Part shown: piece after piece, positions 1,545 through 26,983 of the stretch | How positions within the stretch are numbered: position 1 is the stretch's first letter | Layout of the letters: each line of letters starts with the position of its first letter | Source: Patescibacteria group bacterium | GTDB lineage: Bacteria > Patescibacteriota > Patescibacteriia > UBA1558 > GWA2-36-10 | Length of the DNA: 64,000 nucleotides | Direction of reading: 5' to 3' | Assembly: GCA_041665505.1 (NCBI GenBank) | Contig: JBAYIR010000001.1 | Coordinates: 220,392-284,391, forward strand | Position numbers and translations under genes: made by a program | The notes under the pieces: model-generated | Databases searched by the model: none | What the model saw: the letters and a program-made list of their open reading frames with translations, nothing else | What the model was told of the DNA's origin: nothing

Positions 1545-2024
1545 ATGTTGCCAGGAAAAAATTTAGAACAACAAAATATTAGTCCTGAACAATTCAAAGC
1601 TATTGACAAATCAGTAGAAAATTCTTTAGATTCTGGAAAAATAGAGCGAAAAATTATAGCGCCAGCTCAGGAAAATTATAACAATCAAACTCCAACATCA
1701 GTAGTTATACCAGAAGAGCATAATGCAGTTGTTCCCAATAATCAACAAATTATTCATCGGCAAGTAGAAAATGTATTGTCCGCTGGTATGGAAAATGTAT
1801 TTTTATCATTAGACGCTGGTTTGCAGAGGGATTTTAAGCTAAAAGGGGAAGAAACTTCCAATAAAATTACTCTTCTATTGATGCAGACCAAGATAAAAGT
1901 TAGTGCCATTACTAAGCTTATTTTAGAGTGGCTTCGCATTATTCCCAAAATAAATAAACATTATCTAGAACAAGAGGCTAAAATAAAAACAGATAATATA
2001 TTAAAAATAAATCAACAAAAATAA
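1545..2024 (+). CDS. Hypothetical protein
   Basis: ORF of 159 aa lying in the same direction as neighbouring genes. No motif was recognised. Confidence 0.35.
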   Translation: MLPGKNLEQQNISPEQFKAIDKSVENSLDSGKIERKIIAPAQENYNNQTPTSVVIPEEHNAVVPNNQQIIHRQVENVLSAGMENVFLSLDAGLQRDFKLKGEETSNKITLLLMQTKIKVSAITKLILEWLRIIPKINKHYLEQEAKIKTDNILKINQQK

Positions 2025-2027: not shown

Positions 2028-4490
2028 ATGAGTGATTATTTTATTATTGGCATAATTTTATTAATTGGGATTATTATTCTCATAGCTTTGTTTTATTTTG
2101 CTTTCAACCATTCTAGAAGTAGAAGTAATAAAAATCTTCAATCCGAAGTGTTGTTATTAAAAATTCCCAAATATATAAAATCGGAAAAGGAAGAACACAG
2201 CAAAGAATTTGTCCAAGCTGAATTAGGGCAAGTAGAAAACTTATTTGCCGCTTTGAGTGGTCTTAAAGCGCAGAGAAAATTTTTTGGTAGGCGGACAGAT
2301 ATTTTTTCTATAGAGATTGTCTCAGTTGGAGGCTTCACGAATTTTTATGTAGCCACACCAAGTGTTTATAGAGATTTTTTGATTCAACAATTGCAAGCTG
2401 TTTATCCAAAAATATATTTTGAACCAGTTAGTGATTATAATATTTTTCAAGCACAAGGTCATATTAAAGCTGGTGCCCTTAATTTTAAGGGTGATTATAG
2501 TCTGCCAATTAAAACTTATAAGTATTTTGAAAATGATCCTTTAGAGGCGGTCACTAATTCCCTAAGCAAATTAACTGTCAATGAAGGTGCGGCTGTCCAG
2601 TATGTATTTCGGTCGGCCCCTGCTAAATGGCATGCTCGGGGTAGAAAAATAGCACAACAAATGCACCGTGGTATGACTTATAGAGAGGCTATAAAGAAAA
2701 TTGGCGGCGGCGGTTTCTGGGGTAATACGTCTCAGGTATTCAAATTTTTTGCTAGTTTTTTGACTACCAAAGATCCAAAAAAAACTGACCCAGATCAAAA
2801 CGAGCCACCACAGCCAATGTCAGCTATGGAGCAAGAGCGAGCTAAAGGTATGGAAGAAAAAACTTCTAAATCAGGGCTAGAGGTAAATATTAGAGTGGTA
2901 GTTTCTACAGCTAATCCAGAGAGATCTAAAGCTATTTTAAATGATATTTTAAATAGTTATAGTCAATATAATATTTATGAGTTTGGTAATAGTTTTAGAG
3001 CCTATATTCCTAGTAAAGCTGACTCTTATGTAGAACATTTTATTTATCGTCATTTTCTTCCTCAAAAAAGTATGCTCTTAAACTCTGAGGAAATGACTAG
3101 TGTGGTTCATTTGCCTTTAACGACTAGTGAAACACCAAATATTGCCTGGCTGGAAGCGGCTAAAGCAGCTCCACCGGTTAATATGCCGACAGAGGGAGTA
3201 ATACTTGGCAAGAGTTTTTATCGTGGCAGGGAAACTTTGGTTCGTATCAAAGATGCCGATCGTCGTCGACATATGTATGAAATTGGTCAAACTGGTACTG
3301 GTAAATCAGTATTTTTGGAAAGTCTAGCCATTCAAGACATTGCTAATGGTAAAGGGGTTTGTGTATTAGATCCACATGGTGATTTAGCTGAAACTATTTT
3401 ATCTCATGTGCCAAAAGAAAGAGCAGAAGATGTGATTTATTTTGATCCCTCAGATGTTCAAAGGCCAATGGGTATTAATATGTTGGAATTTGAAACAGAT
3501 GAACAAAAAACTTTTGCCATCAATGAAATGATAGCTATTTTTGATAAGTTGTATGATCTCAAAGCTACTGGTGGTCCAATGTTTGAACAATACATGAGAA
3601 ATACCATGTTGCTTTTGATGGATGATAAGGAAAACCAAACCACTTTATTGGAAATTCCAAAAGTTTTAGCTGACGAGAGTTATAGAAAACAAAAATTGGC
3701 TAAAGTAAAAAATTATTTAGTCAAGGACTTTTGGGAAAAAGAAGCACAAAAAGCAGGTGGTGATGCGGCCTTAGCTAATATGGTACCTTATATTACTTCC
3801 AAATTAACTCCTTTTATAGCCAATGACACTATCCGTCCTATAATATCTCAAAGTAAATCGGCTTTCAATTTTAGGAAGGCTATGGACGAAAATAAAATTA
3901 TTATTATTAATCTATCTAAAGGTAAAATTGGTGAGATGAATAGTAGTCTCTTGGGAATGATAATGATTGGTAAAATACTTTTTGCAGCCCTTAGCCGAGT
4001 AGACCTACCAGAAGAGAAAAGACAAGATTTTTATCTTTATATTGATGAGTTTCAAAATTATATTACGGAGAGTATTTCTATTATTTTATCTGAGGCTAGA
4101 AAATATAAATTAAATTTAATATTAGCTCATCAATTTTTAGCACAGTTGGTTAAATCTAAAGATAGAGATACTGGAGTAAAAGATGCTGTCTTTGGTAACG
4201 TCGGCACATTGATTGCCTATCGAATTGGAGTAGAGGATGCTGAGGTAATAGCCAAACAAATGGCGCCAGTTGTGACGCAATATGATTTGGTTAACATGCC
4301 AAAATATACTTGTTATATAAAATTATTAATAGATAACCAAAATCCACCTGCTTTTAATTTTAATCCTATTATGCCAGAAAAAGGCAATTATGAATTGGCT
4401 AAGGCTATCAAAGAGTTGTCACGCCTTAAATATGGTCGGGATAGGCTTATAGTGGAAAATGAAATAAAACAAAGAATGTCTATAATCTAA
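2028..4490 (+). CDS. VirB4/VirD4-like conjugation/T4SS-type P-loop ATPase (FtsK-HerA superfamily) with an N-terminal TM domain. This is the fused form of the split pair at 16264-19538
   Basis: There is an N-terminal TM helix. Walker A is RRRHMYEIGQTGTGKS, followed by a VLDPHGDL motif, Walker B LYIDEFQNY and AHQ. The N-terminal 400 aa aligns with ORF 16264-17754 and the C-terminal part with ORF 17757-19538. Confidence 0.7.
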   Translation: MSDYFIIGIILLIGIIILIALFYFAFNHSRSRSNKNLQSEVLLLKIPKYIKSEKEEHSKEFVQAELGQVENLFAALSGLKAQRKFFGRRTDIFSIEIVSVGGFTNFYVATPSVYRDFLIQQLQAVYPKIYFEPVSDYNIFQAQGHIKAGALNFKGDYSLPIKTYKYFENDPLEAVTNSLSKLTVNEGAAVQYVFRSAPAKWHARGRKIAQQMHRGMTYREAIKKIGGGGFWGNTSQVFKFFASFLTTKDPKKTDPDQNEPPQPMSAMEQERAKGMEEKTSKSGLEVNIRVVVSTANPERSKAILNDILNSYSQYNIYEFGNSFRAYIPSKADSYVEHFIYRHFLPQKSMLLNSEEMTSVVHLPLTTSETPNIAWLEAAKAAPPVNMPTEGVILGKSFYRGRETLVRIKDADRRRHMYEIGQTGTGKSVFLESLAIQDIANGKGVCVLDPHGDLAETILSHVPKERAEDVIYFDPSDVQRPMGINMLEFETDEQKTFAINEMIAIFDKLYDLKATGGPMFEQYMRNTMLLLMDDKENQTTLLEIPKVLADESYRKQKLAKVKNYLVKDFWEKEAQKAGGDAALANMVPYITSKLTPFIANDTIRPIISQSKSAFNFRKAMDENKIIIINLSKGKIGEMNSSLLGMIMIGKILFAALSRVDLPEEKRQDFYLYIDEFQNYITESISIILSEARKYKLNLILAHQFLAQLVKSKDRDTGVKDAVFGNVGTLIAYRIGVEDAEVIAKQMAPVVTQYDLVNMPKYTCYIKLLIDNQNPPAFNFNPIMPEKGNYELAKAIKELSRLKYGRDRLIVENEIKQRMSII

Positions 4491-4596: not shown

Positions 4597-5181
4597 ATGT
4601 CAAAAGAAAAAAAAATTAAAGATTTAGAAGCTTTATTATATAATTTAGAATTAGAACTCACCAAGACTAAACAAGTTTTAGGTGAGTTAAGTGGTAAAAA
4701 CTCTTCTGAAGCGGCCAATTATAGTTTGAAGGCGGCTAGAGTCGGTAAGCAGATAGATGGTGATGAAGGTTTGGTAGTAGAAGGAGTTTTCAATGGCCAG
4801 ATTATGATTGGTCCTGATGGCAAACAATATAGTGTACCAGCTAATTATGCTTCTAAATCTAAATTAGTAGAAGGGGACATTCTAAAGTTAACTATAAATT
4901 TTGATGGTTCATTTATTTTTAAACAAATATCGCCAGTAGAAAGAACGAGATTGGTAGGCCACCTCATTAAAGATAAGAGTACTAATGAGTTTGTGGTTTT
5001 GGCTGGAGACAAGATATATAAGGTTCTAATGGCCTCAGTAACCTATTTTAAAGGCGAAGAGGGTGATGAGGCAGTTATATTGGTCTCCAAAGATTCTGAT
5101 AGTAATTGGGCCGCTGTAGAGAATATAATTAAAACTAATCATAGAGGGATTTCTACTGACGAATTGGATTTTAGTCTTTGA
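4597..5181 (+). CDS. Hypothetical protein with an N-terminal coiled coil
   Basis: ORF of 194 aa between the ATPase gene and dnaX. No family was recognised. Confidence 0.4.
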   Translation: MSKEKKIKDLEALLYNLELELTKTKQVLGELSGKNSSEAANYSLKAARVGKQIDGDEGLVVEGVFNGQIMIGPDGKQYSVPANYASKSKLVEGDILKLTINFDGSFIFKQISPVERTRLVGHLIKDKSTNEFVVLAGDKIYKVLMASVTYFKGEEGDEAVILVSKDSDSNWAAVENIIKTNHRGISTDELDFSL

Positions 5182-5184: not shown

Positions 5185-6684
5185 ATGTCAGAAGTCATCT
5201 ATAGAAAATATCGGCCAAAATTTTTTAAAGAGGTTATCGGTCAAAAACCGATAAAAATTACTCTAGAAAATGAAATAGCTAGTGGGAATTTGGCCCATGC
5301 TTATTTATTTGTTGGACCACGGGGCACTGGTAAAACTACCTTGGCTCGTCTTTTTGCTCGTTCTTTAAATTGTAGCAATCGTCAAAATAAAGAATCTGAA
5401 CCCTGTAATGAATGCGAAAATTGTAAAGTCATATTAGCTGGACGTTCTATGGATATTTTAGAAATTGATGCTGCTTCTCACACTGGAGTAGATAATGTCC
5501 GTGATAATATTATTGCCAATTCACAAATACCACCTTTTAGTAGTAATGGTTATAAAGTTTTTATTATTGATGAGGTGCACATGTTATCTAAATCTGCTTT
5601 CAATGCTCTGCTTAAAACTTTAGAAGAACCACCCAAAAGAATAATCTTTATTTTAGCCACCACCGAAGTACACAAAGTACCAGAGACTATTATTTCTCGT
5701 TGTCAGAGATTTGATTTTAAAAAAATACCAATCAAGGATATCGTCAAAAGAATGACTGAGATTGTGGAATGGGAAAAAATTGAAATTTCAGAAAAAATTT
5801 TATCAGAAATAGCTCGTCGTAGTGAGGGCTGTCCCAGAGATGCCGAATCATTGCTAGGTCAAATAATTTCTATTAGTGGTGGTAAGGTCAGTGATGAGTT
5901 AGCTTCTTTGGTTTTACCAAATAGCAATTGGCAAGCCATTGACGCTTTGACAGAGGCTTTAAAAGTAAAAAATTTACCAACTGCTCTTAACCAAATTAAT
6001 AAATTAGTAGAAGAGGGGGCAGATTTGAGCATTTTTATTGCTGATTTCATAGATTATATTAGACAGATAATGCTGTACAAAATTATTGGGCCTAGTTTTG
6101 CTCTTGATTTTGATGATAACTTAACAAATTCTATAAAAAAACATGCTCAAGATTTTTTATTAGAAGATATATCAAACTTGCTTAACATAATATTGGATAA
6201 ATTAGCCATTAAAGAAACCATAATTGATCAACTACCTTTAGAATTGGCTTGTGTAGAATTTTTATTGATTCAAGCAGATAATGAAGAAAAAAAGATTGAT
6301 AATTTTTTGGAAACAAAAGATAAAAAAAAAATTAATTTAAATATTCAAGATTTAGAAAAATTACAAAATAATTGGTCAAAAGTAGTGGAACGGGCTAAAC
6401 CATTTAATCATTCTTTGTCAGCTATGTTACAAACTAGCCACCCTTTGACAATGGAGGGAAATTTACTTACCATTGGCTTGGAATATGATTTCCATAAAGA
6501 ACAACTAGATAAATCAGCTAGCAAGGAAAATTTAATAGCCATTTTTAGTGATATATTAGGTAAAAAAATAAATTTAGCTTTTGTTATTGATGCCGATTAT
6601 AAACAAAACCATCAAAGTTTTAAAGGCAAAAGTGAAAGCGGAGTAGATCAAATTTTAGATACTTTTGGTGGAGAAATGTTATAA
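5185..6684 (+). CDS. dnaX: DNA polymerase III subunit gamma/tau
   Basis: N-terminus YRPKFFKEVIGQ, Walker A GPRGTGKTT, zinc module CNECENC and an SRC box ISRCQRF. Confidence 0.9.
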   Translation: MSEVIYRKYRPKFFKEVIGQKPIKITLENEIASGNLAHAYLFVGPRGTGKTTLARLFARSLNCSNRQNKESEPCNECENCKVILAGRSMDILEIDAASHTGVDNVRDNIIANSQIPPFSSNGYKVFIIDEVHMLSKSAFNALLKTLEEPPKRIIFILATTEVHKVPETIISRCQRFDFKKIPIKDIVKRMTEIVEWEKIEISEKILSEIARRSEGCPRDAESLLGQIISISGGKVSDELASLVLPNSNWQAIDALTEALKVKNLPTALNQINKLVEEGADLSIFIADFIDYIRQIMLYKIIGPSFALDFDDNLTNSIKKHAQDFLLEDISNLLNIILDKLAIKETIIDQLPLELACVEFLLIQADNEEKKIDNFLETKDKKKINLNIQDLEKLQNNWSKVVERAKPFNHSLSAMLQTSHPLTMEGNLLTIGLEYDFHKEQLDKSASKENLIAIFSDILGKKINLAFVIDADYKQNHQSFKGKSESGVDQILDTFGGEML

Positions 6685-6689: not shown

Positions 6690-6763
6690 TCGGGGATCGT
6701 CTAATGGTAGGACAACGGGTTCTGGTCCCGTCAATTGGGGTTCGAGTCCCTATCCCCGAGCCA
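6690..6763 (+). tRNA. tRNA-Gln (anticodon CUG), 74 nt, with encoded CCA
   Basis: Manual fold. Acceptor TCGGGGA/TCCCCGA, D-stem GTCT/GGAC, anticodon stem ACGGG/CCCGT, loop TTCTGGT (anticodon CTG), T-arm TGGGG-TTCGAGT-CCCTA, discriminator G, then CCA. Confidence 0.75.
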
Positions 6764-6922: not shown

Positions 6923-7279
6923 ATGAAAAAAATATTAACATTCGCTTTGTTATTTCTACCTAGCGTAGCTTCAGCTCAAATAACCGTCAATGACTGGGGA
7001 TACAATGAGTTAGCTCAAGGCAATATCGCCTTAGGTACCAGAGACTTAAGATCAACAATTGCTGGAGTTATAAACATTGTTCTAGGTTTCTTAGGTGTTT
7101 TAACTACTGTGATTATTCTCTTTGGTGGTTTTAAATGGATGACTTCTTATGGTGATTCTTCTAAAGTTGATGAAGCTAAAAAAATGATTGGAGCTGGTGT
7201 CATTGGTCTAGTAATCGTATTGACCGCTTATGCCATTTCCAGATTCGTATTAGTAAATATCGCTAATAAAACATTATAA
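6923..7279 (+). CDS. VirB2/TrbC-like T4SS pilin candidate, tandem copy 1
   Basis: 118 aa. Signal peptide ending ASAQ, then two hydrophobic helices (IAGVINIVLGFLGVLTTVIILFGG and GAGVIGLVIVLTAYAI). This is the VirB2 topology. Confidence 0.55.
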   Translation: MKKILTFALLFLPSVASAQITVNDWGYNELAQGNIALGTRDLRSTIAGVINIVLGFLGVLTTVIILFGGFKWMTSYGDSSKVDEAKKMIGAGVIGLVIVLTAYAISRFVLVNIANKTL

Positions 7280-7315: not shown

Positions 7316-7669
7316 ATGAAAAAAATATTAACATTCGCTTTGTTATTTCTACCTAGCCTAGCTTCAGCTCAAAATGTCAATGACTGGGGATACAATGAGT
7401 TAGCTACTGGTAATATCGCTCTAGGTACCAGAGACTTAAGATCGACAATTGCTGGAGTTATAAATATTGTTCTAGGTTTCTTAGGTGTCTTAACCACTTT
7501 GATTATTTTGTTAGGTGGTTTCAAATGGATGACTTCTTATGGCAGTTCTGACAAAGTTGATGAAGCTAAAAAAATGATTGGCGCTGGTGTCATTGGTCTA
7601 GTAGTGGTATTAACTGCTTATGCCATTTCCAGATTCGTATTAGTAAATATTGCTAATAAAACAATCTAA
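7316..7669 (+). CDS. VirB2/TrbC-like T4SS pilin candidate, tandem copy 2
   Basis: 117 aa and about 85-90% identical to copy 1. The two sit within a 393-nt direct repeat unit. Confidence 0.55.
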   Translation: MKKILTFALLFLPSLASAQNVNDWGYNELATGNIALGTRDLRSTIAGVINIVLGFLGVLTTLIILLGGFKWMTSYGSSDKVDEAKKMIGAGVIGLVVVLTAYAISRFVLVNIANKTI

Positions 7670-12305: not shown

Positions 12306-13988
12306 TTGTTGATTACAAAATATATGAATAAATATAGTGAAATTTCAAACAAAGGGCAGGTTACAAGTACCAAAATAAGGGTCACTTTTGGCATTATTTT
12401 TTTACTGACTATTTTTGCGGCGCTAATAGTTTGGCCAAGTGCTCCTGGCTGGTTTGGTAAATTTAAGGTTCATTTGGGGCTTGATTTACAAGGTGGCACA
12501 CATTTGGTCTATCAGGCTGATGTTTCTGCTCTAGAAGGAGCTGAAAAAAGAGAAGGTGTCCAAGCATTACGTGATGTGATAGAACATCGTGTTAATGCTT
12601 ATGGTGTCTCAGAATCAGTAGTACAGACAAATTTTAGTGGGGATAATTATCGTATTATTGTAGAGCTAGCTGGTGTAAAAGATGCTAATGAGGCTATTTC
12701 TATTATTGATAAAACTCCACATCTAGAATTTAAAACTCAAGGTGAGGCTGTTTTTGATGAAAGTGCTCAAGCTAAACTAGATGAGATTAAAGTCAAAGCC
12801 AAAGAAGTGTTGGCTAGAGCTCTAGCTGGTGAAGATTTTTCGAAATTAGCTTCAGAATATAGTGAAGATACTGCTTCCGCTGCTAGTGGTGGTGATTTGG
12901 GTTATGTGGCTAAAGGTTTATTTGTGCCCGAATTTGATAAAGTTATTTTTGATGAACTTCAATCCAATCAAATTGCTCCAGAATTAGTGGAATCTCAATT
13001 TGGCTATCACATTATTAAAAAAATAGATCAACGATTAAATGATAAAGGGGAAATAGAAGTACACGCCGCTCATATTTTATTTCAAAAGACTGATGCTGAC
13101 TTAGCTAATGTTGTTTGGCAAGATGTTGGTTTGACTGGCCGTGAAGTGGCTAAAGCCCAATTAAGTTTTGAACAAAATACTCAATCTCCATTGGTCCTTT
13201 TGTCATTCAATGATAATGGTAAAGAAATTTTTTCTAAAATTACTAGTGAAAATGTTGGTAAACCAATTGCTATATTTTTGGATAATGAAATAATTTCTAG
13301 CCCAGTAGTTAATGAAGCAATCAAAGATGGTCAAGCTCAAATTTCAGGTAGTTTTACTATTTCTGAAGCTAAAGAATTAGTTAAAAATTTAAATTTAGGA
13401 GCTTTACCTGTGCCAATAGAACTTATTAGCCAAACTACTATTGGAGCCAGTTTGGGAGCAGAATCATTAGATAAAAGTCTTTTGGCAGGACTAATTGGTC
13501 TGATAGCGGCTGCTTTGTTTATGATTATTTTTTATAGATTACCAGGATTATTATCTGTTTTAGCTTTAGTTGTCTATTCAGTATTATCTTTAGCAATTTT
13601 TGAATTAATACCTATTACTATGACTTTAGCTGGGGTAGCTGGTTTCATATTATCTATTGGTATGGCGGTAGATGCTAATGTGTTGATATTTGAGCGTACT
13701 AAAGAAGAACTTTATGAAGGTAAAAGCCTTAATACTTCTATAGAAAATGGTTTTACACGCGCCTGGTCTTCTATTAGAGATTCAAATATTTCGTCAATTA
13801 TTACTTGTGTGATATTAGCTTGGTTTGGTACTTCAATTGTCAAGGGTTTTGCTATTACTTTGGGTATTGGTATACTTGTTTCTATGTTCTCGGCCATTAC
13901 TGTTACTAGAACTTTTTTAAGATTAATAGTCAATAAGCGTTTGGAAAATAAATTAGGCTTATTTGGAGTAAAAAAAGCAAAGGAATAA
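12306..13988 (+). CDS. secD: Protein translocase subunit SecD with an inserted parvulin-type PPIase domain
   Basis: SecD N-terminus (LGLDLQGGTHLVYQAD) and C-terminal TM bundle. Residues about 150-240 carry a PpiC/parvulin signature (GGDLGYVAKGLFVPEFD...FGYHIIKK). Confidence 0.85.
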   Translation: MLITKYMNKYSEISNKGQVTSTKIRVTFGIIFLLTIFAALIVWPSAPGWFGKFKVHLGLDLQGGTHLVYQADVSALEGAEKREGVQALRDVIEHRVNAYGVSESVVQTNFSGDNYRIIVELAGVKDANEAISIIDKTPHLEFKTQGEAVFDESAQAKLDEIKVKAKEVLARALAGEDFSKLASEYSEDTASAASGGDLGYVAKGLFVPEFDKVIFDELQSNQIAPELVESQFGYHIIKKIDQRLNDKGEIEVHAAHILFQKTDADLANVVWQDVGLTGREVAKAQLSFEQNTQSPLVLLSFNDNGKEIFSKITSENVGKPIAIFLDNEIISSPVVNEAIKDGQAQISGSFTISEAKELVKNLNLGALPVPIELISQTTIGASLGAESLDKSLLAGLIGLIAAALFMIIFYRLPGLLSVLALVVYSVLSLAIFELIPITMTLAGVAGFILSIGMAVDANVLIFERTKEELYEGKSLNTSIENGFTRAWSSIRDSNISSIITCVILAWFGTSIVKGFAITLGIGILVSMFSAITVTRTFLRLIVNKRLENKLGLFGVKKAKE

Positions 13989-15044: not shown

Positions 15045-16148
15045 ATGTCTGGAATTTTAGACCAAGTAATTACATCAAAGCACTTGTCAAAGCTGTCTGA
15101 TTTTGATCCCCATCAAACTTTAGAAAATATTTTGACTGCTTTATCAGAGCGTGAGCAAGAAATCATAAAAATGCGTCACGGCTTGTCTGGTTCGGAGAAA
15201 AAAACTCTTGAGGACATTGGAAAACAATACGATGTTACTCGTGAAAGAATTAGACAAATTGAAAATACTTCTCTGAAAAAGATCAATAAAAACTTCAATC
15301 AAACTATTTTAAAAGAGATTGAAGATATAGCTAATGCTACTTTGTCTGAGCATGGAGGTTTGATGTCTGAGGATAATTTGATAGCCGAACTATTAGCTAT
15401 GCCTGGAGATTCAGAAGCTAATAGGGCTGCTATTAGGTTTATATTAAATCAACTTTTAAATCATAGATTTTATTTTGTCAAAGAATCAAAACAGCATAAC
15501 AGTTTTTGGAAGACTCCAGAAGCTAATGTAGATTTATTTCATGATACTATAGATAAGGTGCGCACCCTAGTTAATACTCATGGTGACCCACTAAGTTTAG
15601 AAGAACTTATAAATAAAATTCAAGAAACTGAATTCTATACCAATAATAATGATTTGACTGATAAAGTAGTAATAAACTTTATTACCGTCACTAAAAAATT
15701 AGAAGCCAATCCTTATGAAGAATGGGGTTTGGTGGAGTGGCCAAGCATTACTCCGCGTAGAATGAATGATAAGATATATTTGGTGCTTAAGAAAAAAGGT
15801 CAGCCAATGCACTTTACTGAAATTGCTGACACTATAAATCAAATGTCTTTTGACCATAGACAAGCTTATCCAGCTACAATCCATAATGAGTTAATTCTAG
15901 ATAAAAAATATGTTTTAGTTGGCCGTGGTATTTATGCTTTAAAAGAATGGGGTTATAAACCAGGGGTAGTAGCTGACGTCATAGCCGATATTTTAAAAGA
16001 TAGTGACAAGCCACTGACTAAAAAAGAAATAACACAAGCCGTTTTAGAAAAACGTATGATCAAAGAAACTACCATTACCCTAGCCCTAATGAATAAAGAT
16101 AGATTTGCTAGGGATGAAAGAGGTCGTTACTCATTAAAAACTGAATAA
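15045..16148 (+). CDS. Sigma-70 region-4-like HTH fused to a C-terminal HARE-HTH domain (putative transcription regulator, not a canonical sigma factor)
   Basis: Region 4 signature near the N-terminus (TLEDIGKQYDVTRERIRQIENTSLKKI). The C-terminus is HARE-HTH-like (HFTEIADTINQ...GRGIYALKEWGY). Confidence 0.5.
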   Translation: MSGILDQVITSKHLSKLSDFDPHQTLENILTALSEREQEIIKMRHGLSGSEKKTLEDIGKQYDVTRERIRQIENTSLKKINKNFNQTILKEIEDIANATLSEHGGLMSEDNLIAELLAMPGDSEANRAAIRFILNQLLNHRFYFVKESKQHNSFWKTPEANVDLFHDTIDKVRTLVNTHGDPLSLEELINKIQETEFYTNNNDLTDKVVINFITVTKKLEANPYEEWGLVEWPSITPRRMNDKIYLVLKKKGQPMHFTEIADTINQMSFDHRQAYPATIHNELILDKKYVLVGRGIYALKEWGYKPGVVADVIADILKDSDKPLTKKEITQAVLEKRMIKETTITLALMNKDRFARDERGRYSLKTE

Positions 16149-16263: not shown

Positions 16264-17754
16264 ATGGAAATAACATTTGACTTTTCAGCATTATACGCGG
16301 CTATGGATCAAGGCTACGGAGCCATGGCTTGGTATTTCTTTAAAAACGGGGGGTGGATTATATATTTTTATGTAATTTCTCGCGGTATTTTTGAGATTTG
16401 GCATTTAAATCAAAATATAAAATGGTTTAATACCAATAAATTTGTGATTATCGCTATAGATGTACCAAAAAGTACCGAGCAAACTCCTAAGGCTGTGGAA
16501 CAACTTTTTTCTACTGTTTCTGGTGCTCACAATCCTTTGAATCTTAGAGAAATATATAAAGAAGGACAGTTTCAGCTTAGTTTTTCTTTTGAGATAGTTA
16601 GTATTGACGGCTATGTACAATTTTTAATTCGTACACCTAGCCAATGGCGCGATTTGATAGAAAGCTCTATTTATTCCCAGTATCCAGATGCAGAAATAAC
16701 CGAAGTGGAAGATTATGTTGATACAGTACCTGATCAATACCCAAATGAAACACACAATATTTGGGGTACGGAAATAATTTTAGCTGCCAAGGATGTTTAT
16801 CCTATTCGCACTTATACAGCTTTTGAAGATAATGTTTCAGGCGAATTTAAAGATCCAATAGCCTCACTGATTGAGACTATGAGTAAAATTCAGCTTGGTG
16901 AACAAGTCTGGGTTCAGATTATAGTCAGACCAACTGACACTAAATGGATTAAAAGAAGTCTGAAAGAAGCTTATAAAATTGCTGGTAAGAAATTTTCTGA
17001 GAAAAAAAGTTTTTTGTCTAGCATAATAGATCCTATTACTGGTTTATTTTTCTTGTCCACTGGTGAGCTTTGGGCTTGGCCACAGGATTTGACTGCTAGT
17101 ACTTCTAAAGCTAAAAAAGATGATATGCCATCTATGATGCTTCATTTAACTCCCGGTGAAAAAGGAGCAATAGAAGCCATAGAAGCTAAAGCTAGTAAAA
17201 CTGGTTTTGAATGTAAAATTCGTTTAATATATATATCACCCAAAGAAAAATTTTCTTCGGCTAGAGTCATATCGGCAGTTTTTGGATCCTTTAAACAATT
17301 CAATACGCTAGATTTAAATGCTTTTAAACCTGATCCAAGAACTAAAACTAAAATTAATTATTTTTTTATAAAGACTCTTACAAATTGGCGTAAAAGATCG
17401 ATTATGTCGGCTTATAAAAATCGTAGTGGAGCTATGGGGCATAATTATTTTATATTAAACACCGAAGAGCTAGCTACTATTTGGCATTTCCCAAGCTTAC
17501 TAATCAAAGCTCCACTACTCCAACGAACTGAAAGTAAAAAAGCTAATGCACCTTATTCACTGCCTATTTCTAAAATAGAAGAGAGTGATAAAAGTAAAGT
17601 GACAGAAGATTTAACTAGACAATTAGTCACTCCTAATTTTAATGTTGATATAGCTAATAAGTATTTTGAAGAACGTTTTGCTAAAAAAGATAATAGTGGA
17701 AGTCAAATACCAAAACGTAAGGGGCAAGCACCACCTAATTTACCAACTTCTTAA
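16264..17754 (+). CDS. N-terminal (membrane/accessory) half of a split VirB4/VirD4-like ATPase
   Basis: Homologous to residues about 60-400 of the fused protein at 2028-4490 (EIVSIDGYVQFLIRTPSQWRD aligns with EIVSVGGFTNFYVATPSVYRD). Ends ...QAPPNLPTS* and aligns with ...AAPPVNMPTE in the fused copy. Confidence 0.6.
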   Translation: MEITFDFSALYAAMDQGYGAMAWYFFKNGGWIIYFYVISRGIFEIWHLNQNIKWFNTNKFVIIAIDVPKSTEQTPKAVEQLFSTVSGAHNPLNLREIYKEGQFQLSFSFEIVSIDGYVQFLIRTPSQWRDLIESSIYSQYPDAEITEVEDYVDTVPDQYPNETHNIWGTEIILAAKDVYPIRTYTAFEDNVSGEFKDPIASLIETMSKIQLGEQVWVQIIVRPTDTKWIKRSLKEAYKIAGKKFSEKKSFLSSIIDPITGLFFLSTGELWAWPQDLTASTSKAKKDDMPSMMLHLTPGEKGAIEAIEAKASKTGFECKIRLIYISPKEKFSSARVISAVFGSFKQFNTLDLNAFKPDPRTKTKINYFFIKTLTNWRKRSIMSAYKNRSGAMGHNYFILNTEELATIWHFPSLLIKAPLLQRTESKKANAPYSLPISKIEESDKSKVTEDLTRQLVTPNFNVDIANKYFEERFAKKDNSGSQIPKRKGQAPPNLPTS

Positions 17755-17756
17755 AT

Positions 17757-19538
17757 ATGGAAAACAGAATTACAACTTTTGCTGAAACAAATTATAGAAA
17801 TTCCAATGTTAGATTTGGCATAAAAACTGATGACCGTCGTCGTCATATGTATTTTATTGGTAAAACTGGTATGGGTAAGTCTACAGTTTTGGAAAATATG
17901 ATTATTCAAGATATTCAAGACGGTAAGGGAGTTTGTGTAGTAGATCCTCACGGCGATTTAGTAGAGAAGGTCATTAATTTTGTGCCCTCTAGTCGTATTA
18001 ATGATGTAATATATTTTAATCCAGCTGACTTGGATTTTCCCATTGGTTTTAATGTTTTGGAAAAAGTAGATGCTAGCCAAAGGCATTTGGTTGTATCGGG
18101 ACTAATTGGTGTTTTTCAGAAGATTTGGGCTGATTCATGGGGTCCTAGATTGGAATATGTACTCCATCATGCTATTTCAGCTCTCTTAGAGTATCCTGGC
18201 TCCACTTTGCTTGGTATTATGAGAATGTTGACCGACAAAGCTTTTAGAAAAAGAGTAGTGGAAAAATTGTCTGATCCAGTAGTTAAAGCCTTTTGGATAG
18301 AAGAATATTCTAAATATCCAGATAGGTTTCAATCCGAAGCTATTGCTCCTATTCAAAATAAAGTTGGTCGTTTCCTTTCCTCAGCTTTGATTAGAAATAT
18401 ATTAGGGCAAGTCAATTCATCTTTTTCTATGAGAGATATCATGGATGGCCAAAAAATATTACTTTTGAATCTGTCTAAAGGTAGAGTAGGTGAAGATAAT
18501 TCAGCACTACTGGGGGCGATGATGATTACCAAAATTCAATTAGCCGCCATGAGTAGAGTTGATACTCCGGAAGAAGAAAGAAAAGATTTTTATCTATATG
18601 TAGATGAATTTCAAAATTTTGCTACAGATTCTTTTGCTAATATTTTATCTGAGGCTAGAAAATATAAACTTAATCTTATTATTGCTCACCAGTATATTGA
18701 ACAAGTAGAAGAAAATATTGCAGCAGCTGTTTTTGGTAATGTTGGTACTTTGATAGCTTTCAGAGTCGGTGCGGCTGATGCTGAATTTTTGGAAAAAGAA
18801 TTTTTTCCAACTTTTACTCAAGAGGATTTGGTCAATCTTTCCAAGTTTGAAATTTATATCAAACTAATGATTGATGGTGTAACCTCAGAAGCTTTTTCAG
18901 CTAGAACCTTGCCACCAGTAGCGATGACGGAAGAATTTATAGACATTAAAGAAAAAATAATCAGGGTGACTAGAGAAAGATATGCCAAACCAAGAGCAGT
19001 TATAGAAGATAAAATTATTCGTTGGTCAGAAGGCAGAGGAGAAGATGATATAGATAAGATTCCTGATAGATTAATCAATGAAGCTGTTATCGATAAGTCT
19101 CTCGCTAAAGACATAGCCCCTGTGAGTAGAGAAAATTCAGCTAGTAAAGCCAAGAAAAAAAGAAGAAAATCCAAAGACACTGGTTTTAGTAAAGATGTTA
19201 TTTGCGATTTGTGTGGTAAACAAACTACTATAAATTTTGATCCCGATCCAACTAAACCTATTTATTGCAGAGAGTGTCTAGACCTTTCTAGAGCTGGTAA
19301 AGTTCCGCCACCATCAAGTATTAAAATAATTTCTGATGACGGGCCAGTTGAAGAATTTACTTCTCTAGCTGATGCTTTGAAAGGCAGAAAAGTGACTGTC
19401 AAAAAAACTGAAAATTTAGAAAGTAAGTCAGAAGAGGAAGAAAATATAAAACAGAATGAAGATTTAAGCTCAGAAAAAATTAAAAAAGATGACCAGTCGG
19501 CTGAAGATTTAAAGCCCGGTCAAGTAATAAAATTTTAA
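17757..19538 (+). CDS. ATPase half of a split VirB4/VirD4-like P-loop ATPase, with a C-terminal acidic/Lys-rich tail and a CxxC...CxxC zinc ribbon
   Basis: RRRHMYFIGKTGMGKS, VVDPHGDL, LYVDEFQNF, AHQ. The C-terminus has CDLCGK...CRECL. The start lies 2 nt after the stop of the upstream ORF. Confidence 0.7.
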   Translation: MENRITTFAETNYRNSNVRFGIKTDDRRRHMYFIGKTGMGKSTVLENMIIQDIQDGKGVCVVDPHGDLVEKVINFVPSSRINDVIYFNPADLDFPIGFNVLEKVDASQRHLVVSGLIGVFQKIWADSWGPRLEYVLHHAISALLEYPGSTLLGIMRMLTDKAFRKRVVEKLSDPVVKAFWIEEYSKYPDRFQSEAIAPIQNKVGRFLSSALIRNILGQVNSSFSMRDIMDGQKILLLNLSKGRVGEDNSALLGAMMITKIQLAAMSRVDTPEEERKDFYLYVDEFQNFATDSFANILSEARKYKLNLIIAHQYIEQVEENIAAAVFGNVGTLIAFRVGAADAEFLEKEFFPTFTQEDLVNLSKFEIYIKLMIDGVTSEAFSARTLPPVAMTEEFIDIKEKIIRVTRERYAKPRAVIEDKIIRWSEGRGEDDIDKIPDRLINEAVIDKSLAKDIAPVSRENSASKAKKKRRKSKDTGFSKDVICDLCGKQTTINFDPDPTKPIYCRECLDLSRAGKVPPPSSIKIISDDGPVEEFTSLADALKGRKVTVKKTENLESKSEEEENIKQNEDLSSEKIKKDDQSAEDLKPGQVIKF

Positions 19539-24040: not shown

Positions 24041-24084
24041 AAAAAATCATCCAGTTGCTCGTGAATGGCTGGATGATTTTTTTA
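24041..24084. terminator. Bidirectional intrinsic terminator between convergent genes
   Basis: Perfect 10-bp stem AATCATCCAG/CTGGATGATT flanked by an A-run and a T-run. Confidence 0.65.
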
Positions 24085-24525
24085 TTCTATCTTGATTATT
24101 TCATATTTAGCTAGCTTATCACCCAATTTTATTTCTACAATATCTCCAATAGCTTTACCCAATAAAGCTAAGCCTAAGGGAGAGTGGTGAGAAATAACCC
24201 CCGCGCTAGGATTGGTTTCTGAAGAGCCTAAAATACGATATTGCCGTTTCTGGTCATCTATTTTAGTAGTTATTAAATGGCCGATTTGCACAGTTTGTTT
24301 ATTTTTATTTACTTCAATAATTTGGGCATTGGCAATTTGTTTTTCAATATTTAATATTTTTTGATTTACCCCACGCAGGCTGCCTTTGGCCATTTGGTAA
24401 GCGGCATTTTCAGAAAAATCACCCATCAAAGCCAATCTTTTTACTTCGGCAATCAACTTAGGCTGAACATCTTTTTTTAATCTATCTAAATTTTTTTCTA
24501 GCTCAGCCAATTTATCCTCCGTCAT
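24082..24525 (-). CDS. greA: Transcription elongation factor GreA
   Basis: GreA N-terminal coiled coil (MTEDKLAELEKNLDRLK) and C-terminal FKBP-like domain. The ORF track extends 21 codons further to 24588, but the family N-terminus supports the internal Met. Confidence 0.8.
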   Translation of the reverse strand: MTEDKLAELEKNLDRLKKDVQPKLIAEVKRLALMGDFSENAAYQMAKGSLRGVNQKILNIEKQIANAQIIEVNKNKQTVQIGHLITTKIDDQKRQYRILGSSETNPSAGVISHHSPLGLALLGKAIGDIVEIKLGDKLAKYEIIKIE

Positions 24526-24669
24526 AAAAGGATCAGATTTTATATTTGTGTATTGTCCACCTTTTCTAATTGGTACTCTCATAGTCACTAGTATACTTTA
24601 TATATTATTTTTTTGCTAATTATTTTTTATAAAAAATAATAACTGTGGATAAGTATGCTTATAAAAGTA

Positions 24670-24994: not shown

Positions 24995-25507
24995 TTATTT
25001 TGGTACACTCACACAAGAAAGAGAGGTATAACCCTCACCATCACATTCATCTATACGAGGCTGGGTCTCTAAATTAAACTGTAAAAGATAATAATTTTTA
25101 GGAGAACCAATAATCTTTTGGTACAAATATAAATAAATAACTTGATTTGGTTCATTTTGATTAACTACAGCATTAATTGGATCGCGTGGCATAGCATCTA
25201 AACCAGGTAGCCATTGATTATCTATAGGGTGGTTATAATCAGCACTGATACAGCCACTTATACTTAGTAGACCAGAACATCTGCCATCTTCGGCAGGATA
25301 ATCATCGCCTGTAGTATAATTATAAATTTCCAAAGCTTTACGAATTTGAGTAATATCGCTTAGTCTTCTAGCATCTCTAGCCTTAGCTTTAAAATGGTTT
25401 AAATTAACTACTGCCGCAGTAGAAATAATACCAATAATAGCAATTACTACCAATAATTCCACTAAAGTAAAACCTAGTTTTTGTCTTTTAAAATGGTATA
25501 AAAGCAT
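24995..25507 (-). CDS. Type IV pilin/pseudopilin (prepilin with N-terminal methylation motif)
   Basis: KLGFTLVELLVVIAIIGIIS class III signal and hydrophobic helix. C-terminal Cys pair. Confidence 0.8.
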   Translation of the reverse strand: MLLYHFKRQKLGFTLVELLVVIAIIGIISTAAVVNLNHFKAKARDARRLSDITQIRKALEIYNYTTGDDYPAEDGRCSGLLSISGCISADYNHPIDNQWLPGLDAMPRDPINAVVNQNEPNQVIYLYLYQKIIGSPKNYYLLQFNLETQPRIDECDGEGYTSLSCVSVPK

Positions 25508-25632
25508 AACTATATAAGTATAGCATAAATTTGCTTTTTATTAATAGACTTTGTTATGCTTGAAATTATAAAATAGAGAAAGAGGAGACGCCCTAAGACG
25601 CCTCCTCTTACATATAGCTCAGGCTATTGATG

Positions 25633-25845
25633 CTAAATAGCCTTGAAGTTGCCCCAACCATTCCAAAGAGGCTGACCATGACGATCCCGCTGAGAGTCTA
25701 CCTGTATGAAAACGTCTTGGATGCTAGTCAAACCCCATCCAGCCAGAATTTCACGAGGTGGGTCTTTGCGGATGCCAGTGATAATATGAATCTTGCCACT
25801 ACCAATGGCTTTGACTTTCTGACCCTTTTTGAATTCACAAGGCAT
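25633..25845 (-). CDS. Small hypothetical protein (70 aa)
   Basis: Perfect SD AAGGAGG 7 nt upstream of the ATG. Lies in the GC-rich island. Confidence 0.5.
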   Translation of the reverse strand: MPCEFKKGQKVKAIGSGKIHIITGIRKDPPREILAGWGLTSIQDVFIQVDSQRDRHGQPLWNGWGNFKAI

Positions 25846-25869
25846 TTTCTTTCCTCCTTGAGCTGGAAG

Positions 25870-25901
25870 GCATGTGGTGTGTGAGAGAACAAAAAAGTCG
25901 C
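25870..25901 (-). terminator. Hairpin plus U-tract in the 5' leader of the small ORF (terminator or attenuator)
   Basis: On the minus strand, GTCGCTTAG-cagt-AAGCGAC followed by TTTTTT, located just upstream of the RBS. Confidence 0.45.
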
Positions 25902-26107
25902 TTACTGCTAAGCGACGAACTGGTATTTAATATAAATTATAGACTAAATAACAAATCACCACTTAACAATATAAGGGTTGTACCAAAAGAAGAAAAAATT
26001 TGGCTTGATTTGTCTCATAAAATATATATTATAATATTTTATTCAATTTGGCAAGTAACTTAAAAAAGAGCTTTTTTAAAAGCTTATATTTTTGATTAAT
26101 TTTTTGA

Positions 26108-26142
26108 GTGCCTGCCTCATCACGCTAAAGGTGACGAGGCAG
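26108..26142 (-). terminator. Stem-loop immediately 3' of the hydrolase gene
   Basis: 14-bp stem GCCTGCCTCATCAC/GTGACGAGGCAGGC with one mismatch. A second small hairpin plus U-run follows at about 26055-26075 on the minus strand. Confidence 0.45.
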
Positions 26143-26152
26143 GCTCAAGACT

Positions 26153-26833
26153 TCAGACGTCCGCTATGATGCGGTCGCCGTATTCACGACGGAAGGAGTT
26201 GATTTGCAGAAGCAGAGCCTCCAAGAGATGTTCTCCAACATAGATTCGAGTTGGAGACTGCCAGTGTGAGGACTGCTCCATGAGCTCCAAGAGGTATCTG
26301 GCCAAAGGCACATATTCGCGAATGGTTTCGTTTATTTGCTTGATTTGAAACTCTGGGTCAGCCTTGAATCCCAGAGTGCGAAGATTGGCTACCCGATCAG
26401 CTAGTTTGAGAATAATTACCTCAATACTGCCAGCTTCTCGCATTTGACGGATATAAGAAAGCTTATCCCGCTTATAATCTTCGCCTTTACTCAAAAGTTC
26501 AACCCAATAGCGGACTGTGGAGCCAAAAAGCCTCTCAATCTTGTCCAAGCTGAGTTTGTCAGCCTCTACAGCATCATGAAGCCAAGTCACAACATTCATC
26601 TGCCAGTCGTCTTTGATACCCAGTTCGCAGCTGACTAAATCAGCTACATCACGCAGGTGTTTGAAGTAGTAGGTGACACCATCACCACGATACTCACCAC
26701 GGTGAGCCCATTTCCCCAGACGGTAGGCGCAGACCATCAAGCGTGCTTCTTCAGGGTCATTGATGTAACCCTGAAAACGAACCAAATAGCGTTCGTAGCC
26801 GCGCATTTCCTCAGGTTTTTTTCTGACTTTCAT
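26153..26833 (-). CDS. HD-domain (p)ppGpp hydrolase, SpoT/Mesh1-type small alarmone hydrolase
   Basis: LHDAVED and KLADRVANLRTL match the RelA/SpoT HD hydrolase motifs. Strong SD AAGGGGGT before the internal Met (MKVRKK), so the start was trimmed from the ORF-track coordinate 26869. Distinctly higher GC than the genome. Confidence 0.7.
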   Translation of the reverse strand: MKVRKKPEEMRGYERYLVRFQGYINDPEEARLMVCAYRLGKWAHRGEYRGDGVTYYFKHLRDVADLVSCELGIKDDWQMNVVTWLHDAVEADKLSLDKIERLFGSTVRYWVELLSKGEDYKRDKLSYIRQMREAGSIEVIILKLADRVANLRTLGFKADPEFQIKQINETIREYVPLARYLLELMEQSSHWQSPTRIYVGEHLLEALLLQINSFRREYGDRIIADV

Positions 26834-26947
26834 GTTCGTTACCCCCTTGTTGACGTGAATTGTAAACAACCAAAGTTAATGTCAATAGTTATACTATAGT
26901 CCAAAATTAATGTCAAACATATATTTGTTGATAAATTAGCTAAAATA

Positions 26948-26977: not shown

Positions 26978-26983
26978 TTAAGG

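Follow-up and report, generated by a model that had tools for sequence, protein, structure and literature searches.

A fused and a split paralog of a two-module membrane ATPase in Patescibacteria

Results and Discussion

Two Copies of a Two-Module ATPase

The 64,000-nucleotide stretch of a patescibacterial genome analysed here (the window) carries two homologous loci for a two-module ATPase. One locus encodes both modules in a single protein of 820 aa (2028..4490), while the other divides them between two adjacent genes, split-N (496 aa, 16264..17754) and split-C (593 aa, 17757..19538); all of them lie on the + strand. With a probability of roughly 0.72, we interpret these loci as two ancient paralogs of a membrane ATPase widespread in Patescibacteria, one fused, the other fissioned and extended by a zinc-ribbon tail. 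According to this model, the modules of the fused copy form one chain with a conserved PPxN(L/M)P linker between them. The split copy would derive from an old gene fission just past the linker, such that the N protein ends in the motif and the ATPase starts a few residues beyond the cut; the charged zinc-ribbon tail would have been acquired at the C-terminus of the ATPase. Without a covalent link, the two halves may still come together as the same motor, anchored in the membrane and probably hexameric, with the C-terminal PPxNLP peptide acting as a docking stub.

The fused protein is composed of an N-terminal transmembrane helix, a DUF8128 module and an ATPase resembling type IV coupling proteins (T4CPs), with Pfam matches to TrwB_AAD_bind, DUF87 and TraG-D_C. 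Its orthologs have 805-868 aa and precomputed matches to PF26449, PF10412 and PF02534; the AF2 model of the fused copy reaches a pLDDT of 79.8. The predicted membrane-anchor helix (aa 6-26, IIGIILLIGIIILIALFYFAF, 2043..2105, + strand) shows a Kyte-Doolittle 19-residue mean of 3.2, and the N-terminus is strongly hydrophobic in 24/24 members of the fused family. The inter-domain joint is marked by the motif PPVNMP (aa 382-387, 3171..3188, + strand; family consensus KAAPPxN[ML]PxEG), with P383 and G390 invariant across 24 orthologs. The columns of Walker A (GQTGTGKS, 3285..3308, + strand) and Walker B (LYIDEFQN, 4035-4058, + strand) are invariant in 24 orthologs, too.

Split-N is a stand-alone DUF8128 protein with a predicted fold like that of the VirB4 N-terminal domain. 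Precomputed PF26449 (DUF8128) assignments exist for split-N, via P0001 with 100% identity, and for every listed ortholog of either paralog. The N-terminus of split-N in the window is weakly hydrophobic. The proline motif is present twice in this protein, as NAPYSLP (aa 428-434, 17545..17565, + strand), with P430 and P434 invariant across 24 orthologs, and as APPNLP (aa 489-494, 17728..17745, + strand), two residues ahead of the stop codon, with P490, N492 and P494 invariant (24 orthologs). Split-C consists of a T4CP-like ATPase (aa 1-425) and the charged zinc-ribbon tail, and matches TrwB_AAD_bind (E=4e-13), TraG-D_C and zf_Tbcl_2 in Pfam as well as, weakly, the SXT_TraD and CD1115 VirD4-like models in NCBIfam. 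Its Walker motifs read GKTGMGKS (A, 17859-17882) and LYVDEFQN (B, 18594-18617).

The Joint and the Cut

An earlier note, made from the sequence alone, had described an 820-aa fused ORF and a split pair of 496- and 593-aa ORFs separated by a stop codon, 2 nt and an ATG. ORFs, translations and BLASTP agree with this. The fused copy aligns in two blocks, residues 69-391 with split-N 78-438 (23% identity, E=3e-22) and residues 398-813 with split-C 13-420 (44% identity, E=1e-115). Extrapolation of the ATPase alignment places Met1 of split-C at Met386 of the fused copy; therefore, the position of the cut at the homologous junction holds to within about 4 residues, while the stronger wording that the breakpoint aligns residue for residue does not, as the proteins are not gaplessly collinear there. 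NAPYSLP is equivalent in position to the fused joint: the BLAST alignment pairs it with PPVNMP of the fused copy, and a distance of 22 residues separates a conserved H-x-P from the proline motif both at PPVNMP and at this first motif of split-N. APPNLP lies at the extreme C-terminus of split-N, past an insert of about 55 aa.

A realignment of the two loci at the DNA level, which the note had proposed, returned two patches of 74-76% identity within the ATPase and no similarity at the junction. At such divergence the DNA-level comparison is uninformative.

The junction itself (TAA-AT-ATG, 17752..17759, + strand) reads CCA ACT TCT TAA AT ATG GAA, with the stop codon at 17752-17754, the ATG at 17757 and the two genes in differing frames. 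A promoter-like site was found 5' of split-N, and neither a promoter-like nor a credible terminator-like site between split-N and split-C. The junction has no Shine-Dalgarno motif; such motifs are missing at 20/22 starts checked in the source genome, and since the genome does without them, Shine-Dalgarno evidence is unusable either way for translational coupling. Co-transcription and the 2-nt spacing could nevertheless yield matched output of the two halves by termination-reinitiation in this genome without Shine-Dalgarno sites.

Age and Conservation of the Split

The split is old and conserved, and represents neither a recent frameshift nor an error. Among 80 species-level representatives of the relatives (loci labelled with L and a number, e.g., L042), the ATPase gene directly follows the N-part gene in 70; split-N occurs without a nearby ATPase gene in four loci. 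All three relative frames of the two genes are seen (26/23/21), and the spacers range from -14 to +587 nt. Across the 70 loci, identity among orthologs is 37-77% for the N half and 59-93% for split-C, and the motif is found at the C-terminus of the N protein in nearly all loci. The stand-alone N family is large. It comprises at least 150 clusters (50% identity): 4,623 clusters match at E<=1e-3, of which the 150 best all measure 369-691 aa. The PPxNLP motif lies at most 6 residues from the C-terminus in 133/148 cluster representatives of stand-alone DUF8128 proteins.

These data bear on the proposal of the earlier note that a frameshift and stop recently divided a once-fused gene, the result being tolerated via translational coupling; in another version of this reading, the gene would be heading to a pseudogene. 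Stop and start are indeed only 2 nt apart, and one indel in roughly the last six codons would be enough to bring the frames together. However, 70 species-level genomes hold two genes in three frame relations with spacers up to 587 nt, both halves are strongly conserved with an invariant C-terminal motif, and the split-C frame, extended upstream of its start, meets several stops. Furthermore, the stand-alone N family is broad, the paralogs share merely 23% and 44% identity with DNA similarity in two short patches alone, and close relatives provide zero fused orthologs of the split clade. We thus regard a recent fission as highly improbable. An apparent re-fusion in L042 (a 1,016-aa ORF) turned out to be an artefact of a run of 100 Ns spanning the junction.

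The source is a metagenome-assembled genome, which might raise the suspicion that faulty assembly or sequencing created the split. The chance of this is close to negligible: the identical 496-aa product is recorded in independent sources, the gene boundary and the C-terminal motif are repeated in 70 independent assemblies, and the same motif closes the stand-alone proteins of the 133 cluster representatives mentioned above.

Both paralogs share one chromosome in the window and in L009, L010, L013 and L073; JBLYPX010000001.1 also holds both (L024 and L081).

The Zinc-Ribbon Tail

The tail of split-C comprises 168 aa, 40% of which are charged, and contains a CxxC-x17-CxxC zinc ribbon (CDLCGKQTTINFDPDPTKPIYCREC, aa 483-507, 19203..19277, + strand). 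The four cysteines stand at the given spacing and the scores exceed the curated cut-offs, with 40 bits against PF23477 (E=3e-10, cut-off 27) and 40.2 bits against TIGR04272 (2e-10, cut-off 36). The ribbon is present in 52/66 complete split-C orthologs and in 0/24 fused orthologs, which confirms the zinc-ribbon tail as a specific trait of the split ATPase, as the note had described it. C-terminal extensions recruit substrates in other T4CPs. By analogy, the zinc-ribbon tail may recruit a nucleic-acid or adaptor substrate.

Affiliation of the ATPase

The assignment of the ATPases to the VirB4/VirD4/HerA-FtsK clade, suggested in the earlier note, is borne out by Pfam, NCBIfam, PDB sequence searches and hhalign alike. 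Within this clade, sequence comparison places the ATPase with the TrwB/VirD4-type coupling proteins. PF10412 scores above its cut-off in the fused copy and in split-C, and Walker A and B are intact in both. PDB sequence matches are limited to TrwB and DotL. In hhalign comparisons, TrwB of R388 (reference plasmid NC_028464) is matched with 95.4% probability (E=1.8e-8, 255 columns), compared to 10.7% for TrwK and 5% for the VirB4-like protein of pBM69, while with TrsE the Walker A region alone is matched. The TIGR00929 VirB4 model, with its cut-off of 643 bits, yields 15.2 and 17.7 bits, and the Pfam scans gave zero matches to PF03135 (CagE_TrbE_VirB). In the AF2 model, an all-alpha domain of seven helices (residues 491-597) is inserted in the nucleotide-binding domain amid core strands, and the TrwB alignment crosses this region (412-710 vs TrwB 118-390).

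The two copies depart from the TrwB/VirD4/TraD proteins in several respects. Where these T4CPs typically have a two-helix N-terminal transmembrane domain (TMD), a single strong helix precedes a soluble DUF8128 module of about 350 aa in the fused copy, and split-C lacks any membrane segment; TMD-less subfamilies of T4CPs are known (PMC7434980). Moreover, the genes of the window are chromosomal, near-universal in the clade and present as two paralogs, and adjoin neither a relaxase gene nor virB4.

Both proteins might instead be divergent VirB4 paralogs, i.e., ATPases of assembly or pilus biogenesis rather than coupling proteins. Their two-domain size and layout are like those of VirB4, the N module resembles the N-terminal domain of TrwK in predicted models, VirB2-like pilin genes lie 2.4 kb 3' of the fused copy, and pSK41 already shows a VirB4-N-like part encoded on its own, by trsD located 5' of trsE (PMC12102498). 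We nonetheless hold this reading to be rather improbable in view of the profile scores and hhalign probabilities given above, which favour a T4CP. In addition, plasmid homologues (see below) adjoin a relaxase gene in a cluster that has a VirB4-like gene of its own, and distinct VirB4 genes are found elsewhere in Patescibacteria (PMC12102498). VirB4 proteins such as TrwK of R388 and Thermoanaerobacter VirB4 reveal no significant sequence-profile similarity to the proteins of the window, whose genes also differ in having no adjacent virB3, virB6 or virB8.

Fold of the DUF8128 Module

For the DUF8128 module, structure prediction suggests a fold similar to that of the VirB4 N-terminal domain. AlphaFold models of the N module built on 24-sequence alignments (pLDDT 72) match the TrwK N-terminal domain in Foldseek with TM-scores of only about 0.3. 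A sequence link from DUF8128 to the VirB4 N-terminal domain or to TrsD was considered and dropped. Comparison with TrwK by hhalign gave 21 columns (YPDAEITEV vs YPDAEFDNV) at E=0.1, and with TrsD zero detectable similarity; Pfam scans of 24 DUF8128 members at E<=10 revealed no relevant match, and a PDB sequence search only insignificant matches to ribosomal protein S6. As the sequence searches gave nothing significant, the proposed link is one at the fold level only.

Plasmid Homologues and the Direction of Change

The fused combination of N module and ATPase also occurs on Bacillus plasmids, in BMMGA3_RS16220 of pBM69 (833 aa) and KJP42_RS21280 of NRS6107_2 (913 aa). These proteins, annotated as "DUF87 domain-containing" and encoded at the T4CP position, match both modules in hhalign with 99.93% probability (E=5e-36, 627 columns), and the split-N profile matches their N-terminal region with 96.1%. 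Their genes are located directly 5' of a gene of the replication-relaxation (relaxase) family and of Tcp/ICEBs1-like T4SS genes. In contrast to the pair in the window, the plasmid homologues are plasmid-borne, single-copy and never split in the set searched; their identity is only 22-26%. Plasmids from Clostridium botulinum, Streptomyces and Priestia encode related fused forms. The T4CP of pLS20 itself belongs to another type, with the classical two-TM layout. At the sensitivity used, a search of 72,556 plasmids yielded zero split forms.

Because the fused architecture adjoins a relaxase gene on the Bacillus plasmids, fission of the split copy is the likelier direction, by parsimony alone, than fusion of the other. 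The opposite course, with two ancestral genes and the 820-aa form as the product of their fusion, we judge unlikely. It could draw on trees that cannot be rooted, on the very large stand-alone family, and on separate N-like and ATPase genes elsewhere (TrsD/TrsE; TraI/TraJ of pIP501, PMC7434980). Against it stand the occurrence of the fused form on non-patescibacterial plasmids (Bacillus, Clostridium, Streptomyces and Priestia), the fused architecture as the rule for VirB4, and the plasmid search without a split form. A first NJ tree grouped the paralogs as sister clades, with TrwB and TrsK beside them; with the plasmid homologues included, distances were saturated, bootstraps were low (63, 48 and 19 of 100), and the trees did not resolve the root. 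Rooting the duplication by NJ trees was abandoned for this saturation and the low bootstraps; the argument on polarity is independent of the trees.

Separate products have parallels in known systems. In pIP501, TraJ/TraI resemble the split pair as a TMD-less ATPase and a small membrane-associated partner, thought to act jointly (PMC7434980); compared by description, the partner differs here in being a 500-aa DUF8128 protein, and the genome that encodes it also encodes a fused paralog with a homologous N part. TrsD/TrsE of pSK41 and pGO1 likewise show a separate gene, described as remotely VirB4-N-like, immediately 5' of the ATPase gene (PMC12102498). However, TrsD has 227 aa and no detectable similarity to DUF8128, and TrsE is a VirB4 and not a T4CP-like ATPase.

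Genomic Neighbourhood and Function

Each copy keeps a different conserved gene neighbourhood. The fused gene is preceded by a conserved ORF of 159 aa (1545..2024, + strand) with zero Pfam or NCBIfam matches, and followed by a conserved gene of 194 aa without a family (4597..5181, + strand) and by dnaX (5185-6684). The order of fused gene, 194-aa gene and dnaX is repeated in L009, L010, L013, L073, L081 and L082. In L081 and L082, where the fused protein shares 54-55% identity with that of the window, an unannotated gene of about 151-163 aa fills the slot of the 159-aa ORF, and L010 likewise shows a small gene 5' of the fused gene. The split operon is preceded by a conserved gene for a protein of 367 aa in which Pfam detects Sigma70 region 4 and HARE-HTH domains (15045..16148, + strand), found just ahead of split-N in + strand order in 68/80 loci; secF and secD are present in the neighbourhood in 51/80 and 47/80 loci, respectively.

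The VirB2-like pilins reported in the earlier note are present as two tandem genes (6923-7279 and 7316-7669, + strand; PF18895 T4SS_pilin, E=6e-8 and 1.8e-7), with matches below cut-off to the NCBIfam Mbov_0395 pilin-like model. Both pilin genes share an identical 25-nt upstream sequence. Rfam and blastn searches on a structured intergenic region were both empty.

The note had further concluded on a T4SS-like apparatus with duplicated energising components. This finds no backing in the window, where neither VirB4, VirB6, VirB8 nor a relaxase was found within 64 kb; association with a relaxase and T4SS genes is seen solely for the distant plasmid homologues. Patescibacterial genomes carry about two T4CP homologues each, rarely near virB4 (148 of 5,713), and an exaptation was suggested (PMC12102498). 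As cited there, Tn-seq marked the t4cp homologue as non-essential in a Saccharimonadia strain. The T4SS of Patescibacteria is the first T4SS with a demonstrated essential role in growth of its carrier bacterium (PMC12857230).

Of the two explanations offered in the earlier note, functional specialisation of two motors fits better than a recent fission, and each paralog may have its own cargo or partners. Both might be exapted for T4SS-independent housekeeping, e.g., a translocation of DNA or protein tied to replication or secretion; this reading is about function and can stand beside the structural account of fused and split paralogs. The deeply conserved core-genome setting of the split operon (secD-secF-sigma4/HARE-HTH), the conserved order of small ORF, fused gene, small ORF and dnaX, the lack of a relaxase or VirB4 nearby, and the published genome-wide pattern all speak for it. 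Yet compact genomes may keep gene order without functional linkage, the Bacillus plasmid homologues stand in a classical conjugation context, and VirB2-like pilins are close by in the clade. On balance, we consider such an exaptation possible, but would not expect it.

A further-reaching idea is more doubtful: the DUF8128-ATPases could be a surviving intermediate between VirB4 and T4CP that was domesticated, duplicated and split, the split copy, held together by PPxNLP, working on DNA independently of VirB4 and VirB2. If so, the family would be a motor of T4CP type that has kept a VirB4-like N-terminal domain, T4CPs would descend from a two-domain VirB4-like ancestor, and in Patescibacteria the lineage would have been domesticated as a core chromosomal gene and duplicated, with one copy split; the role of the split copy on DNA would then involve the zinc-ribbon tail and the conserved sigma4/HARE-HTH neighbour.

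Implications

Patescibacteria depend on host cells, and their approximately two T4CP homologues per genome had no explanation. At least in the lineages sampled (Komeili-, Falkow-, Kerfeld-, Buchanan- and Nomurabacteria and their relatives), these are a fixed pair of one fused and one split copy. DUF8128 would gain a structural identity as a predicted VirB4-N-terminal-like fold, and the family is now tied to plasmid proteins in a true conjugation context. With its sharp conservation, the C-terminal peptide lends itself directly to interaction and mutagenesis work, and the fused/split pair constitutes a natural experiment on the fission tolerance of a modular motor.

Two paralogous loci and their joint

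The window carries, all on the forward strand, a fused gene at 2028-4490 (820 aa) and a split pair at 16264-17754 (split-N, 496 aa) and 17757-19538 (split-C, 593 aa). The coordinates, sizes and stop-2 nt-ATG arrangement given in the earlier note were all borne out: the junction reads TCT TAA AT ATG, and the frames of the two ORFs differ. Judged from the protein sequences, homology of the fused and split loci is far above chance. In BLASTP comparisons, split-N 78-438 matches fused residues 69-391 (23% identity, E=3e-22), and split-C 13-420 matches fused residues 398-813 (44% identity, E=1e-115). DNA-level realignment, which the earlier note had called for, revealed only two short patches of similarity, both in the ATPase.

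The breakpoint had been described as aligning residue for residue at the homologous joint. Split-N contains two copies of the proline motif, NAPYSLP (428-434) and APPNLP (489-494). The distance to a conserved H-x-P motif identifies the first copy as the counterpart of fused PPVNMP (382-387); the second forms the protein end after an insert of about 55 residues. Extrapolation from the BLASTP alignment places split-C Met1 opposite fused Met386, and therefore the cut lies at most about 4 residues from the homologous joint. The location at the joint thus holds within that distance; the exact correspondence does not, given the second motif copy and the insert.

Age and conservation of the split

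One genome per species was scanned for split-N orthologs, which yielded 80 loci. A split-C ortholog directly follows in 70 of them, with identities of 59-93% in the ATPase and 37-77% in the N part. The relative frames of the two genes are spread evenly over these 70 loci (26/23/21), and the spacers range from a 14-nt overlap up to 587 nt, with 47 of 70 at 12 nt or less. The split is thus conserved in relatives, and these observations refute a recent fission by frameshift, one of two explanations offered before; the other, a functional specialization of two motors, is favored over it. Sequencing error as the cause of the split is likewise incompatible with this conservation, the even frames and the varied spacers. 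The sole apparent case of a re-fused single ORF, at L042, is produced by a run of 100 N.

The best 120 split-N relatives in the database are 315-534 aa long, the shortest stemming from short contigs, and carry PF26449 only. Nearly all of the best 120 fused relatives span 802-868 aa with PF26449 plus T4CP (type IV coupling protein) domains; the few shorter ones (e.g., P0174, P0175, P0180, P0192) are fragments or partial records. The ATPase is absent at nine split-N loci, five of which are cut by contig ends. In L030, L051, L055, and L057, split-N has its usual C-terminal motif, but the flanking 2.4-10 kb in each direction contains no T4CP-like ATPase; the two halves thus need not be linked in the genome. 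Both paralogs share a chromosome in the window. They do so too in L009, L010, L013, and L073, at a distance of 7-9 kb, and in JBLYPX010000001.1 (L024 and L081), where about 150 kb separates them.

By sequence, the ATPase is a coupling-protein homolog

Both copies match Pfam TrwB_AAD_bind and TraG-D_C, to which precomputed annotations of fused relatives add T4SS-DNA_transf. The Walker A and Walker B motifs are intact in both. NCBIfam matches are weak and partial, the best being TraD and VirD4-like models; the VirB4 model scores far below its cut-off. TrwB and DotL are the only solved structures matched by sequence. With reference proteins from R388 and pSK41, the fused-family profile aligns to TrwB over 255 columns (95.4% probability) and to VirB4 proteins only around the Walker motifs. 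The predicted model contains a seven-helix insertion between core strands, which resembles the all-alpha domain of T4CPs. On sequence grounds, the ATPase is a member of the T4CP family; the broader label VirB4/VirD4-like used earlier was not wrong.

According to PMC12102498, Patescibacteria have about two VirD4-like T4CP homologs per genome (5,713 in 2,918 genomes), of which only 148 lie near virB4; one homolog was non-essential in Tn-seq, and exaptation was proposed. Also recognized are T4CP subfamilies that lack a TMD and have a small membrane protein as partner (PMC7434980).

Relatives on monoderm plasmids

A tblastn search against 72,556 plasmids returned matches covering both modules on Bacillus, Clostridium, Streptomyces, and Priestia plasmids. 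The homologs on pBM69 (833 aa) and B. subtilis plasmid NRS6107_2 (913 aa) are annotated only as "DUF87 domain-containing protein". They share the fused two-module layout with the patescibacterial protein and differ in setting, as they lie directly upstream of a replication-relaxation-family gene and of a Tcp/ICEBs1-like T4SS that has a VirB4-like ATPase of its own. The pBM69 protein matches the fused-family profile over 627 columns (99.93% probability, E=5e-36), and its N-terminal region is matched by the split-N profile (96.1%).

On monoderm plasmids, therefore, the fused two-module protein occupies a genuine coupling-protein position, in keeping with the published view that monoderm conjugation machinery gave rise to the patescibacterial T4SS (PMC12102498). 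The finding also makes fission a more parsimonious direction than fusion. The root of the duplication was not resolved in distance trees.

Sulfitobacter mediterraneus plasmid NZ_CP081110.1 encodes a 395-aa ATPase-only homolog lacking the N module (99994-101181). Its neighbors are recombinase and transposase genes, and it is not part of a T4SS cluster; it shares 35% identity with the ATPase of the fused copy (E=1e-62).

Further features of the window

The window has about 32% GC, nearly all genes of its first 24 kb lie on one strand, and it includes the housekeeping genes lepA, dnaX, uppS, ddl, secDF, alaS, secA, and others. It is a patescibacterial (CPR) chromosome and not a mobile element. 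A protein on record from the MAG of a "Patescibacteria group bacterium" matches its split-N at 100% identity. VirB4, VirB6, VirB8, or a relaxase are not encoded within the 64 kb. The VirB2-like pilins reported earlier are present as two tandem genes (6923-7279 and 7316-7669, forward strand), just after a tRNA-Gln (6690-6763). Both are preceded by identical 25-nt sequences, which indicates tandem duplication including the upstream region.

SecD (12306-13988, forward strand) carries a PPIC-type peptidyl-prolyl isomerase (rotamase) domain inserted at aa 143-242, between the first periplasmic subdomain and the P1 head. An 843-aa protein (33602-36133, forward strand) has Mur ligase middle and C-terminal domains confined to its last ~320 residues; its first ~500 match no family.

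The intergenic region upstream of alaS (26900-27732, forward strand) has a GC content of 0.39-0.47 against ~0.32 and an extreme predicted RNA structure (MFE -293 versus -210 +/- 6.7 kcal/mol for shuffles, z = -12.5). Two near-perfect sigma-70 promoters (26948-26977 and 27360-27388) and a strong terminator (27308-27335) suggest an RNA of about 360 nt plus a leader or sRNA of about 300 nt. Searches of this region against Rfam (E<=1) and, by blastn, against the collected loci gave no match. GC is elevated across 25600-27700, which may be foreign DNA; a putative HD-domain (RelA/SpoT-type hydrolase) protein, judged by eye, is encoded at 26153-26869 (238 aa). Putative type IV prepilin-like (24995-25507) and GreA-like (24082-24588) ORFs lie nearby, all three on the reverse strand.

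Neighborhoods, zinc ribbon and expression

The split operon belongs to a gene order that is deeply conserved, secD-secF-[Sigma70 region 4 + HARE-HTH protein]-split-N-split-C. In the window, the gene for the HARE-HTH protein (15045-16148, forward strand, 367 aa) lies just 5' of split-N, a position that it also takes in 68 of the 80 species loci, usually after secD-secF. The fused gene belongs to the array [~155-aa ORF]-fused-[~195-aa ORF]-dnaX, held even where the fused protein is down to 54-55% identical (L081, L082). In the window these small family-less ORFs flank the fused gene at 1545-2024 (159 aa) and 4597-5181, with dnaX next, both on the forward strand; they are candidate partner proteins.

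The zinc ribbon noted in the split-C tail is real: CxxC-x17-CxxC lies at aa 483-507, with PF23477 and TIGR04272 above their cut-offs. Of 66 complete split-C orthologs, 52 carry it, and it is absent from all 24 fused proteins.

Immediately 5' of split-N there is a promoter-like site, and no credible one was found between the halves. Shine-Dalgarno motifs are almost absent from the genome (22 gene starts checked in the window). Taken together, these two observations make it plausible that split-C is expressed by termination-reinitiation, coupled to split-N. A TATAAT box stands only 10-17 nt ahead of the ATG in several genes, among them split-N, uppS and the 159-aa ORF; this spacing suggests mRNAs with a very short leader or none.

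The DUF8128 module and its C-terminal peptide

The N-terminal module is Pfam DUF8128 (PF26449), an accession of which no mention was found in the searchable literature. Foldseek ranked 14 TrwK chains first (probability 0.87-1.0, TM-scores only ~0.3), and comparisons with TrwK, TrsD, and Pfam at the sequence-profile level gave negative or marginal results. We read the predicted fold as resembling the VirB4 N-terminal domain, homology to VirB4 being unproven. PMC12102498 describes TrsD as a VirB4-N-like protein encoded separately. The N-terminal helix is strongly hydrophobic in the fused copy and weakly so in the split-N of the window; 16 of 24 family members are clearly hydrophobic there.

P490, N492, and P494 do not vary in a set of 24 diverse split-N orthologs, where 0-3 residues separate them from the C-terminus; the motif was found again across the 80 split-N loci. 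A profile search of 1.84 billion cluster representatives yielded 4,623 DUF8128 clusters (E<=1e-3). The best 150 are all stand-alone (369-691 aa), and 133 of the 148 whose sequences were read have P-x-[N/S/D...]-[L/M/I/P]-P within six residues of the C-terminus. A short class (~415-440 aa) has a single motif and ends exactly where the fused protein runs on into the ATPase; in a long class, including the split-N of the window, a linker and another copy of the motif follow. At the joint of the fused family, KAAPPxN[ML]PxEG is retained. Termination of the protein directly behind the joint motif stands out as the strongest of the new regularities.

Keyword searches of PMC12102498 and PMC12857230, T4SS papers covering Patescibacteria, returned none of the following: the pair of fused and split paralogs, a VirB4-like fold for DUF8128, the PPxNLP rule at the C-terminus, the zinc ribbon as a lineage marker, the two conserved neighborhoods or the link to Bacillus plasmid proteins. 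The structural and evolutionary account of the pair is well supported. As the motif's place at the protein end suggests, the C-terminal peptide would still contact the ATPase after fission. The halves would reassemble through it, and the split-C tail may mediate substrate choice.
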